Source: Alphaproteobacteria bacterium
GTDB lineage: Bacteria > Pseudomonadota > Alphaproteobacteria > GCA-2731375
Length of the DNA: 64,000 nucleotides
NCBI GenBank assembly: GCA_965225945.1
Contig: CBDDBZ010000033.1
Location: 96,001-160,000, forward strand
Direction: 5' to 3'
Shown here: positions 7,956 to 11,165 of the stretch, piece by piece
Numbering within the stretch: the first letter of the stretch is position 1
Layout: every line of letters starts with the position of its first letter
Notes under the pieces: generated by a model
What the model saw: only the letters and a program-made list of their open reading frames with translations
What the model was told of the DNA's origin: nothing
Databases searched by the model: none
Translations under genes and position numbers: made by a program

Positions 7956-8624
7956 ATGCAAAGACCTACGGCCGTGTCACGGCGCAAGCTGCTTGGTGGC
8001 GTCGTTGCTGGTACCGGTGCGCTGATCGCAGGTAAGGCGGCGCAGGCAGCGTGCGCCCTCACTCCGCGTCAAATCAACGGGCCGTTCTTTCCGGTCGCAA
8101 TCAACGATTATGACTGGGATATGACTCACATGCCCGGCCGGCGCGACCGCGCCGTGGGCGACGTGATCGAGATCGTCGGCCGCGTGCTCGACACCGACTG
8201 CAAGCCGCTCCGCGGCCCCATTCTCGACGTGTGGCAGGCTAACGCGGCGGGGCGCTATCTGCATCCACGTGATCCCAATCCGGCACCGCTCGACCCCAAT
8301 TTCGAGGGCTATGCCCGATTATATACCGAAGCGGATGGGGTCTATCGAATTCGAACGATTGTTCCCGGCGCCTATCCAGTGGAACCGGACTGGGTGCGCC
8401 CGCCGCATATTCACTTCAAGGTGCACCCGGCGACCGCGCCGTCTATCACCACGCAAATGTACTTCGCCGGACACGAGTTGAACGACAAAGACGGATTGTA
8501 TGCGCAGACGCCGGAGGCGGCGCGCCCGCTCATAACCGTCGCGTTCGACAATTCCACGGCTGACGGAGTTCGTCTCGGCAATTTCGACCTGCACGTCGAA
8601 ACCGGTCCGGAACTGCCGATCTGA
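7956..8624 (+). CDS. Intradiol ring-cleavage dioxygenase (protocatechuate 3,4-dioxygenase-like) with Tat signal
   Basis: SRRKLL twin-arginine leader, GPFFP, WQANAAGRY, PGAYP and RPPHIHFKV iron-ligand motifs. Confidence 0.85.
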   Translation: MQRPTAVSRRKLLGGVVAGTGALIAGKAAQAACALTPRQINGPFFPVAINDYDWDMTHMPGRRDRAVGDVIEIVGRVLDTDCKPLRGPILDVWQANAAGRYLHPRDPNPAPLDPNFEGYARLYTEADGVYRIRTIVPGAYPVEPDWVRPPHIHFKVHPATAPSITTQMYFAGHELNDKDGLYAQTPEAARPLITVAFDNSTADGVRLGNFDLHVETGPELPI

Positions 8625-8937
8625 CAAACCGCGAAACCAATATGAGGTCGTCGTCGATACGGTTGTCGCCTCGATGACCCGGAAGGTTACCTGGGCCGAC
8701 GACCGAGGTGGCACTAGCGCGAAGTTGGACGACGTGGACAAGGCCGACTTGGGGTCATCTCCAGCCGGTTAGAATCCGCTAATGTTTTGGAGAGTCTTGT
8801 GGGCACTCCTGACGTCGATTCAGCGAAAGATGGTATATCGCGGCGGCTGTGGCTGATGATATCAGGATGATGGCAGCCCCTTCACGCATGATCGATAAAT
8901 CGGGGTCGCCCTGACCTCGAACATCGAGGAAGGAGCG

Positions 8938-9990
8938 ATGACGATGGCACATTTCGTAGGTCTGGATGTTTCGGTGAAGGAGACGGCGGTATGCGTCGTC
9001 GACGAGGTTGGCGAGGTGGTGTTGGAGCGGAAAGTGCCGACCGAGCCGGACGACATCGTCACGCTGCTGACCTCGATCGGCGTGGCCTATGGCCGGATCG
9101 GGATCGAAGCCGGTCCGCTCTCGCAATGGCTGGTCAACGGTCTTGCCGCCGCCGGGCTGCCGGTTGTCTGCGTCGAGACTCGGCACATGAAAGCACTGCT
9201 CAAGGGGCAGCAGATCAACAAGAGCGACCGCAACGATGCGCGCGGCATCGCCCAGATGATGCGGGTCGGGCTGTTCAAGCCGGTGCATGTGAAGACCCTG
9301 GTTGCCCAGGAGCAGCGGATGCTGCTGACCAGCCGCAAGCTGCTCCAGAGAAAACTGCTCGACGTCGAGAACGATCTACGCGGGACGCTGCGCAACTTCG
9401 GTCTCAAGGTGGGCATGGTCAGCACCCGCGGGTACGAGGCGCGGATCCGCGAGCTGGTCGAAGACTTTCCGAAGCTGGCCGCTATTGTGGAACCGCTGCT
9501 CACCGTCCGGCGAGTGATGCGCCAGCAATTCGCGGTCCTCCACAAAATGGTGCTCGACACGGTCCGCCATGACCCGGTCTGCCGACGGCTCATGACGGCA
9601 CGCGGCGTCGGCGTGGTCGTCGCGCTGACCTACCGGGCTACCATTGATCAGCCGCAGCGCTTCGTTCACTCCAGGGCGGTCGGCGCGCATGTCGGCCTGA
9701 CGCCGAAGCGCTTCCAGTCCGGCGAGATCGACTATGATGGTCGCGTGTCCAAGTGCGGCGACAGCATGCTCCGCACGATGCTGTACGAGGCCGCGCAGTC
9801 GCTCCTCACCCACGGCCGGAAATGGTCCTGGCTGAAGGCGTGGGGCATGCGAGTGGCCCAGCGACGTGGCATGCGCCGTGCCATCGTCGCCGTCGCGAGG
9901 CGCCTGGCCGTAGTTCTGCACCGCATGTGGGTCGACGGCACCGAGTTCCGCTGGAGCAACGGCCCTGCTGACGCCGTCAAGGCGGATTGA
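8938..9990 (+). CDS. IS110-family DEDD recombinase/transposase
   Basis: GLDVS, IEAG, KSDRNDA (DEDD) and C-terminal GLTPKRFQSG...ISKCG-like (VSKCG) motif. Confidence 0.95.
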   Translation: MTMAHFVGLDVSVKETAVCVVDEVGEVVLERKVPTEPDDIVTLLTSIGVAYGRIGIEAGPLSQWLVNGLAAAGLPVVCVETRHMKALLKGQQINKSDRNDARGIAQMMRVGLFKPVHVKTLVAQEQRMLLTSRKLLQRKLLDVENDLRGTLRNFGLKVGMVSTRGYEARIRELVEDFPKLAAIVEPLLTVRRVMRQQFAVLHKMVLDTVRHDPVCRRLMTARGVGVVVALTYRATIDQPQRFVHSRAVGAHVGLTPKRFQSGEIDYDGRVSKCGDSMLRTMLYEAAQSLLTHGRKWSWLKAWGMRVAQRRGMRRAIVAVARRLAVVLHRMWVDGTEFRWSNGPADAVKAD

Positions 9991-10040
9991 ACCTTCGACT
10001 GTACTGACAAGGAGATCAACGAGTTCTGCTTAGGCAGAGA

Positions 10041-10209
10041 GATGTCCTCACGGGGACGACGGGTGGGGTGAGTTCGTAATGTCGGTAGACCCTGCCGCTG
10101 ACCGGCGGCAAGGACGCGCGAAAGATTGAACCGCCTCATCCTCTGATCCCATCATGAGGTGGCCACGCGCCAACCTCGAAGAGAAGCAAGAGCCCCGTGC
10201 GGCAACATC
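10041..10209 (+). ncRNA. Putative bridge/seek RNA of the IS110 element
   Basis: Manual fold: closing stem 10049-55/10193-99 and two stem / internal loop / hairpin domains, whose loop strands match the element's target flanks and donor junction (see findings). Boundaries approximate. Confidence 0.75.
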
Positions 10210-10370
10210 CGCCAGTGCGGAACGACGTGAAGAAGGAATATGGCATGACGTAACCAGAAAGGGCTTGACCGAGGACGCGATAGAGAAGCCGACATTCGGT
10301 CCCGGTCGCACTTGCCCCCCTCCCCGCCAACGGGCAAGCTCGGCGAAACGAACTGGAGGAGGAAAACGCC

Positions 10371-11165
10371 ATGTCGCGCGCGGAGATCAACGGAACCACT
10401 ATTCACTACCACTTCGACGGCTCCGACGACGCGCCCGCCGTCATGCTGTCCAACTCGCTCGCCTCCAACCTTTCGATGTGGGACCACCAGGTGCCGGCGC
10501 TGCTGGAGGCCGGCTACCGGGTGCTGCGCTACGATAGCCGCGGCCACGGCCGCTCTTATGCGCCGGCGGGGCCCTATTCGATCGAGCTGCTGGGCCGCGA
10601 TGCGGTCGGCTTGATGGACGCTTGCGGGCTCGACCGGGTTCGTTTCTGCGGCCTCTCCAAGGGCGGCATGGTCGGCCAGTGGCTCGGCGCCAACGCCGGC
10701 GATCGGCTGATCTCGCTCGCGCTCTGCGATACCGCCTCGCACATGGAAGGCGGCGGCGATGCCTGGCAGCAGCGGATCGAGGCGGTCGAGGCGGGTGGCA
10801 TGGAAGCCGTCGTCGACGGCACCCTCGAGCGCTGGTTCACCAAGCCCGGAATGGCGCGACTGCCAGACGAGGTCGGCGCCGTCAGGGCGATGATCCTGGG
10901 CACGCCCGTCGTCGGCTTCCAGGCCTGCTGCATGGCCATCCGCGACATGGACCTGCGCCCGGGACTCGGGCGGATCACGACGCCGACGCTGGTCATCGTC
11001 GGCGAGGAGGATCCCGGCACTCCGGTCGAGAAGGCGCGGGAGATCCACCAGGGGATCGCCGGCTCGGAACTGGTGATTCTGCCGGACTGCGCGCATCTCT
11101 CGAACCTCGAACAGGCGCCCGCGTTCAACGAGGCCCTGCTCGGCTTCCTCGCCCGCCACGGATAG
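10371..11165 (+). CDS. pcaD: 3-oxoadipate enol-lactonase
   Basis: LSNSLAS...MWDHQ, RYDSRGHGRS, GLSKGG nucleophile elbow and AHLSNLEQ. Confidence 0.8.
   Translation: MSRAEINGTTIHYHFDGSDDAPAVMLSNSLASNLSMWDHQVPALLEAGYRVLRYDSRGHGRSYAPAGPYSIELLGRDAVGLMDACGLDRVRFCGLSKGGMVGQWLGANAGDRLISLALCDTASHMEGGGDAWQQRIEAVEAGGMEAVVDGTLERWFTKPGMARLPDEVGAVRAMILGTPVVGFQACCMAIRDMDLRPGLGRITTPTLVIVGEEDPGTPVEKAREIHQGIAGSELVILPDCAHLSNLEQAPAFNEALLGFLARHG

Follow-up and report, generated by a model that had tools for sequence, protein, structure and literature searches.

The stretch of DNA analysed here, hereafter the window, comprises 64,000 nucleotides of an alphaproteobacterial genome (Alphaproteobacteria bacterium, GenBank assembly GCA_965225945.1, 6.27 Mb in 39 contigs; contig CBDDBZ010000033.1, positions 96,001 to 160,000, forward strand), and the coordinates given below are window positions. 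We conclude, with a probability of about 0.93, that positions 8830-10288 on the + strand (1459 bp) are one copy of a recently active, multi-copy, IS1111-type insertion sequence (IS) of the IS110 family, equipped with a bridge RNA. This conclusion is carried by the exact boundaries of the element, by its copies and their sites in the host genome, by an RNA fold supported by covariation, and by the covariation of guides with targets among related elements. The RNA in question, a predicted bridge/seek RNA of approximately 155 nt (10046-10201), is encoded by the 3′ non-coding end, on the same strand as the transposase.

The element, its ends and its flanks are as follows.
8830-10288, + strand: insertion sequence, with ends exactly common to 10 full-length host copies (98-100% identity) and alignable with 55 related loci.
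8823-8829, no strand: left flank GCGAAAG, which is the right-target half plus the core (CTTTCGC on the minus strand); AG at 8828-8829 is a copy of the core, and the letters are those of the guide at 10118-10124.
8830-8836, + strand: left-end donor half ATGGTAT, which pairs with the guide at 10146-10152 except for one C/T mismatch at 8834.
8836-8842, + strand: left sub-terminal inverted repeat TATCGCG, with its reverse complement at 10276-10282.
10276-10282, + strand: right sub-terminal inverted repeat CGCGATA, reverse complement of 8836-8842.
10282-10288, + strand: right-end donor half AGAGAAG, whose final two bases are a copy of the core; right ends are invariant in relatives.
10289-10296, no strand: right flank CCGACATT; on the minus strand it reads AATGTCGG, the left half of the target.

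The first bases of the element are ATGGTATATCGCG and the last are CGCGATAGAGAAG, and both boundaries are sharp in the alignments of relatives. The dinucleotide AG is found just outside the left end (8828-8829) and again as the last two bases of the right end (10287-10288); it precedes the left end in 53 of 55 aligned related loci, the exceptions being L039 and the truncated L047. As in other IS110 elements, a 2-nt core is consequently common to the target and the joined ends, and there is no long target duplication. Excision in silico of 8830-10288 leaves GCGAA-AG-CCGACATT, precisely the empty target that a first-pass annotation of this DNA had given, and every other coordinate and string of that annotation is also present in the sequence (read over 8700-10420). 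The circle junction would read AGAGA-AG-ATGGTAT; a search of the assembly for a junction-like 24-mer, with up to two mismatches, found none. Left ends of relatives read ATGGTGT or ATGGGGT, and their sub-terminal repeats, TATCGCGGC or TAATCGGCC at both ends (9-10 bp), vary between subgroups yet remain inverted repeats.

The family assignment rests on the protein and on the layout of the element.
8938-9990, + strand: open reading frame (ORF) of the transposase/recombinase, 350 aa, with the Pfam domains DEDD_Tnp_IS110 and Transposase_20 and the NCBIfam model NF033542.

Both halves of the IS110 layout are recognisable in this protein, the N-terminal DEDD/RuvC-like domain (PF01548, 5.7e-19) and the C-terminal Tnp domain (PF02371, 2.8e-19), and NF033542, “IS110 family RNA-guided transposase”, matches it with 247 bits (cut-off 140). 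The first-pass annotation held the class to be known, and indeed it was described in 2024 and the name of this model already contains “RNA-guided”. A sequence search of the PDB yielded ISCro4 (1.5e-12) and IS621 (8wt6, 1.5e-11) as the sole solved relatives. In the alignment with 8wt6, D10, E57, D97, D100 and S261 stand opposite the catalytic residues of IS621, which are D11, E60, D102, D105 and S241 (PMC11208158), while the N-terminal part is weak on its own (independent E-value 90). S261 lies within GLTPKRFQSG (residues 253-262), which fits the GL-P----S(t)G motif of IS1111 transposases, proteins of 330-350 aa (PMC11187229). Other IS1111 characteristics are a longer non-coding region downstream of tnp (298 nt, 9991-10288, against 108 nt on the left, 8830-8937) and sub-terminal inverted repeats, which at 7 bp lie at the lower bound of the 7-17 bp reported for the group (PMC11208160). 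Durrant et al. predicted bridge RNAs in 93% of the IS1111 elements in ISfinder (PMC11208160).

The feature that defines bridge RNAs and seekRNAs, namely loop strands that match both strands of target and donor, is found in the right non-coding end as four guides.
10078-10085, + strand: left target guide AATGTCGG, 8/8 as the reverse complement of the right flank (10289-10296); hypervariable in the family.
10118-10124, + strand: right target guide GCGAAAG, 7/7, same letters as the left flank (8823-8829); its final AG reads the core.
10146-10153, + strand: left donor guide ATCCCATC, 7/8 to the reverse complement of 8829-8836 (core G plus left end).
10180-10186, + strand: right donor guide AGAGAAG, 7/7, same letters as 10282-10288; invariant in 60/60 sequences.

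These are the guides of the first-pass annotation, at the positions it proposed, and such a set is not expected by chance. Among 200,000 first-order Markov sequences modelled on the non-coding end, the single guide strings occurred in 1,111, 10,031, 9,810 and 13,404 simulated ends, and the four jointly in none (the product of the single frequencies is 9e-7). CCAT of the left donor guide is conserved across the family. With regard to the core, AG forms the last two letters of both right guides (target and donor), and the left donor guide can pair with just the first of the two core bases. Immediately 3′ of the left target guide, most members of subgroup 1 have CA and subgroup 2 has CT. In IS621, by contrast, all four guides include the core dinucleotide (PMC11208160). 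The window element does not follow this rule, which is a difference from IS621 and not a criterion for IS1111-type seekRNAs.

The guides are displayed by a fold that relatives allow to be tested. RNAalifold, applied to 61 sequences, returned four helices; 60 of these sequences then served to build a covariance model. The structural features are listed below.
10025-10038, + strand: hairpin immediately upstream of the guide RNA; two of its pairs differ in both bases between subgroups (CG/UA 34/27, AU/GC 32/27).
10049-10055, + strand: 5′ strand CACGGGG of the closing stem P1, pairing with 10193-10199.
10193-10199, + strand: 3′ strand CCCCGTG of P1, pairing with 10049-10055.
10058-10076, + strand: 5′ strand of the outer stem of the target domain, pairing with 10127-10143; 15 pairs, 96.4% of cells paired, 7 pairs changed on both sides.
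10127-10143, + strand: 3′ strand of the same stem, partner of 10058-10076.
10088-10115, + strand: inner hairpin of the target loop; 8 pairs counted, 7 changed on both sides, 86% of cells paired.
10156-10177, + strand: donor-loop hairpin; 7 pairs, 99.8% of cells paired, 4 changed on both sides.

In the model-based alignment, 92.8% of the cells of 36 pairs are paired, against 39-50% when the partners are slid by 1-3 columns; 21 of the 36 base pairs change on both sides, and none of 500 shuffles reached any of five measures. G-U pairs are frequent, one of them being G-U in 59/59 sequences, and are compatible with the + strand alone. The stems drawn in the first-pass annotation (10061-76/10127-41, 10093-10110 and 10156-77) reappear in the minimum free energy (MFE) fold and are supported by this covariation. 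P1 is a helix additional to them; 56 of 60 sequences keep all seven of its pairs, although the stem occurs in at least four sequence variants, and its offset is nearly fixed (5 nt, or 6 nt in two sequences). The target domain alone measures 86 nt and the stem-enclosed RNA approximately 151 nt, sizes that fit the short (70-100 nt) and long (145-170 nt) seekRNA forms of IS1111-type elements (PMC11187229).

Relatives for these comparisons came from a scan of one genome per species, which provided 80 loci with encoded proteins 65-95% identical. Their DNA similarity extends past the stop codon to element position ~1370 and ends there, and the RNA scaffold is conserved in 79 of 81 sequences (the 80 loci plus the window). 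Two hypervariable blocks interrupt the aligned non-coding ends, located exactly at the two target guides. Guide/target covariation was assessed in the sequences with both flanks readable (57 of 81; two had no RNA and 22 no flank), which became 56 after one duplicate was dropped. The left guide matches its own right flank at a mean of 6.66 of 8 positions, compared with 4.61 for non-cognate pairs, and for the five variable bases of the right guide the values are 3.96 and 2.02. The observed sum of matches, 595, was reached by none of 10,000 permutations (404 +/- 11, maximum 453). The covariation also holds within each subgroup and when one representative per guide pair is used (40 pairs). Natural variation is ample, with 26 right-guide and 22 left-guide variants, and 25 of the 26 right-guide classes match their own left flanks better than those of other classes. 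An absence of such covariation among homologues had been named in advance as a finding that would speak against RNA guidance; the 56 insertions now show the opposite.

The covariance model also recovers the RNA beyond the set from which it was built. It matches an ISMno22-family gene locus (113 bits), a Bosea plasmid (139 bits) and Methylorubrum (the M. extorquens AM1 megaplasmid, 93 bits), and at these loci the left guide again matches the right flank. In the host genome it finds 12 copies and no other kind of locus. Matches were obtained in 2 of 30 relatives and in neither of two same-genus genomes, a distribution that fits recent gain and spread.

The host copies consist of 10 full copies (98-100% identity), one twice-interrupted copy and one 262-bp solo 3′ piece. 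All of them, including the interrupted copy and the solo piece, are located at junctions resembling ...AAAG|CCGACATT. Seven of the 10 full copies have exactly CCGACATT as their right flank and the remaining three deviate from it at a single base, and it is thus not the case that other copies lie at unrelated sites, which would likewise have counted against the annotation. On the left, GCGAAAG is exact in five full copies, and nine of the ten end in AAAG. The target belongs to a repeat of ~160 bp present in about 10-20 copies, some members of which have an inverted second arm, as in a REP-like element. Although the copies at C24:86304 and C29:43159 and the interrupted C37 copy have identical 30-nt flanks on both sides, so that the three represent one site in a larger repeat, the other eight full copies lie in differing surroundings with only the short target in common. 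No perfect empty 15-mer site is left in the host genome, and one-base-off empty sites number 7 against 0.5 expected by chance. As the left flank (8250-8829) had no match in 30 relatives, no orthologous empty site was available, and the empty site rests on paralogous copies of the repeat.

Nine of the 10 full copies carry identical guides. The C29 copy (G000:C29:43159-44614) is decayed, with a 3-bp deletion, two changes within guides and one just 3′ of the left guide; its guides, AATGTCTG and GCAAAAG, resemble those of relatives. The C26 copy (G000:C26:7840-9307) is also decayed, small insertions breaking the frame near the N-terminus of the transposase. Four unoccupied near-target sites (C25:157324, C29:100457, C29:102711 and C36:267678) read GCGAAACCCGACATT, which differs from the target only in the core (AG to AC).

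Several observations weigh against the conclusion drawn above. The MFE of the whole 298-nt end is unexceptional (z = -1.6; 13 of 200 shuffles fold at least as well), an Rfam scan of 8600-10500 gave no match at E up to 1, and a promoter scan of 8700-10400 found no sigma-70-like site (the accompanying terminator scan of this region returned two terminator-like sites, both on the minus strand and inside the ORF). Within the RNA, the left target guide of the window copy is followed by TA where the core CT would pair, and the left donor guide has a C/T mismatch to base 5 of the left end (8834), a mismatch that is conserved in subgroup 1. In the covariation analysis, the guide registers of the two subgroups were chosen after the data had been seen. 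Furthermore, L056 and L058 fit poorly at the assigned register (2/8 and 1/8 left-guide positions), and L051 and L077 (3/8 and 2/8) fit only if shifted; these four loci were kept in the counts, and the relatives are not independent of one another. Finally, the window copy has an arginine at an otherwise invariant proline, so the working of its protein is uncertain.

This last point concerns a single codon.
9601-9603, + strand: codon 222, CGC (Arg); Pro elsewhere, within a PG[VI]G motif.

The element could accordingly be of the kind described and the window copy nevertheless non-autonomous, if Arg222 cripples the recombinase and the copy, with its ends and guide RNA intact, moves only with the protein of its sister copies. 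This possibility is nested within our conclusion and compatible with it, and we put it at somewhat less than even odds. The arginine is private to the window copy. The nine other full copies have proline, as do all 66 relatives whose motif could be located (14 of the 80 related loci had no motif match), the residue aligns with the proline of PGIG in IS621 and ISCro4, and contigs from three public runs that cover 9602 read C there, which gives proline. On the other hand, the ORF is open, all catalytic residues are present, and the effect of the substitution is a prediction; the window copy is otherwise 99-100% identical to its sisters, which means that the change is recent and may be neutral. 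The first-pass annotation had called the element intact: this holds for the open frame and the aligned catalytic residues, and less clearly for a protein with Arg222 where all others have Pro.

A very improbable alternative is that the protein alone, or the sub-terminal repeats, choose the target, and that the matches in the non-coding end are leftovers of captured targets or a regulatory or antisense feature. The RNA is known here from sequence alone, and the donor guides and element ends are almost invariant among relatives, providing little covariation from the donor side, both of which leave some room for this explanation. It does not account, however, for two short blocks in the loop of a covarying stem that track both flanks through 26 and 22 guide variants, nor would captured target DNA come as two separate strands, opposite in sense, on either side of a hairpin. 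Moreover, for IS1111-type relatives it has been reported that the RNA co-purifies with the transposase, is essential and can be reprogrammed (PMC11187229). Equally little can be said for a dead relic whose copies spread by segmental duplication instead of transposition: the three copies with identical flanks and the frame-disrupted C26 copy would suit it, but the eight complete copies in differing flanks, the 98-100% identity among copies and the patchy presence of the RNA in related genomes argue against it.

The fold of the RNA is a three-way junction in which the closing stem (10049-55/10193-99) encloses a target-binding domain, where an internal loop separates a long stem from an inner hairpin, and a donor-binding region, where a hairpin has a single strand on each side. 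In the target loop, the 5′ strand carries the sequence of the minus-strand left target AATGTCGG, and the 3′ strand is complementary to the minus-strand core and right target, CTTTCGC; the two donor strands correspond in the same way to the element ends once joined. If the element behaves like IS621 and ISEc11, the RNA would be transcribed, processed and bound by a tetramer of the DEDD/Ser recombinase, and this complex would pair the excised circle with the REP-like genomic repeat and catalyse strand exchange at the CT (AG) core. The element is taken to work as those systems do because it fits both the strand rule of IS621 and the order observed in IS1111 elements.

The closest described systems in terms of features are ISEc11, ISKpn4, ISPa11 and ISPst6 (Siddiquee et al. 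2024, PMC11187229). They share with the window element the long non-coding region downstream of tnp, the sub-terminal inverted repeats, a transposase within 330-350 aa with GL-P----SG, and the RNA sizes. As in the window family, related elements are naturally re-directed by changed loops, and the match to the top strand comes first in transposase orientation. By contrast, the target of the window element, compared here by features and known from the DNA, is the REP-like repeat AATGTCGG-CT-TTCGC, and its sub-terminal repeat is shorter (only 7 bp) than those of its relatives.

In common with IS621 (PMC11208160, PMC11208158), target and donor are each read by two guide strands, the core is CT, and the protein combines DEDD with a serine. 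The IS621 rule, by which the 5′ guide reads like the left half of the top strand and the 3′ guide is complementary to the core and right half of that strand (PMC11208160), applies to the window element when it is read on the minus strand, where the core is CT. There are nevertheless differences. The RNA is located in the right end, downstream of tnp, instead of the left end, the genes point the other way relative to the strand with the CT core, the fold takes the form of a three-way junction with a single closing stem, and the protein match is mostly confined to the Tnp domain. In addition, the second core base is left unpaired by the 5′ guides, and the left target guide of the window copy pairs with neither core base.

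The nearest named relative is the ISMno22-family element of the Methylobacterium nodulans plasmid pMNOD02 (L117, named after its NCBI product name), for which a full-text literature search for ISMno22 found no paper. It has the same RNA family and the same ends (ATGG... and ...AGAGAAG), but its DNA identity is ~66% and its guides differ. Its left guide matches its own right flank at 9/9 positions, whereas its left flank matches the right guide at only 4/7. ISPpu9 of Pseudomonas putida, with its small RNA Ssr9 (PMC12288879), is also an IS110-family element found in REP sequences, with a small-RNA gene downstream of tnp and extra solo RNA modules. However, Ssr9 is reported there to be dispensable for transposition, while the downstream RNA of the window element carries the guides. 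Furthermore, the host genome contains only one solo fragment, the independent mobility of which is not demonstrated.

This solo piece (G000:C37:60701-60962; L013 1501-1762, minus strand) consists of the guide-RNA gene and the right end only. Its first base corresponds to element position 1198 (window 10027, within the upstream hairpin), CCGACATT follows its right end, and its neighbours are ordinary genes (DHDPS-family and ATC_hydrolase) with no other IS. In Sphingomonas glacialis (L028, 1494-1665), a second, tandem module of RNA and right end begins within 1 nt of this element position. Such solo modules recall the solo ssr9 modules of ISPpu9. In several related loci, namely L044 (~2895-2942), L056 (2827-3544) and L068 (~2800-2960), parts of the right end or RNA region are likewise repeated in tandem beside a full element.

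The interrupted copy (G000:C37:368927-374285) contains a 2545-bp IS21-family element (IstA/IstB) at element position ~1061-1067 and a 1338-bp IS256-family element (Mutator-type transposase) at ~1370-1379, just past the closing stem. Matches over 1 kb number 53 for the first insert and 27 for the second in the host genome, which is therefore rich in IS elements. More distant IS110-family transposase genes are present in the host at C13:8764-9147, C30:143710-144093, C30:137246-137629, C16:1253-1636 and C11:19105-19488, with 65-71% DNA identity over parts. The covariance model, applied to three of these loci (L015, L016 and L018), found no match, and the guide RNAs of these genes, if present, are of another type.

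The window copy is intergenic, between ORFs of 222 aa (7956-8624) and 264 aa (10371-11165). Its right end contains one more conserved motif.
10264-10269, + strand: conserved CTTGAC, present in nearly all related right ends; possibly a -35 element.

The distance from this motif to the right end is 19 nt in the window copy and 22 nt in subgroup 2. Its sequence resembles a -35 box, but a role in a junction promoter is doubtful: in the circle, 22-25 nt would separate it from any -10-like hexamer of the left end, which does not fit a simple sigma-70 promoter.

Public sequencing runs were also inspected (24 listed, all as contigs; four were compared, two of them from RNA libraries). Contigs from the RNA libraries contain the element, which by itself is no demonstration of transcription. 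Neither a circle junction nor an empty-site joint was seen in the contigs of the four runs, where the only joint was one contig skipping 9419-9934, its shorter side covering 22 letters. Depth in run X1 is ~251 inside the element and 34 in the left flank, which fits a multi-copy repeat and nothing more.

Whether the alphaproteobacterial clade goes further, constituting a distinct structural and mechanistic variant of bridge RNA in a host whose targets are saturated, is doubtful, and we regard it as rather unlikely. Such a variant would be marked by the single three-way junction with its covarying closing stem and by the C/T mismatch to the left end, which all members of subgroup 1 have. In it, only the two 3′ guides may read the full CT core, the 5′ guides reading at most its first base, and core recognition and strand exchange may be divided among the guides otherwise than in IS621. 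The targets of the host genome do look saturated, since perfect sites are all occupied and four of the seven one-mismatch sites differ in the core.

Knowledge of the class as such is left unchanged by this element. What it adds is a cleanly delimited family of IS1111-type bridge recombinases that brings with it a large series of naturally reprogrammed guides (26 right-guide and 22 left-guide variants, all of them matched by their insertion sites) and a covariation-backed secondary structure, including a closing stem that bounds the long RNA form. Together, the guide series and the structure could aid the selection or engineering of orthologues of the IS1111 type, which have received less study than IS621. 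For the host, the element accounts for about a dozen repeat-associated insertions and marks one REP-like repeat family as a landing pad; if the saturation of its targets is true, it could even have driven the erosion of its own target family.

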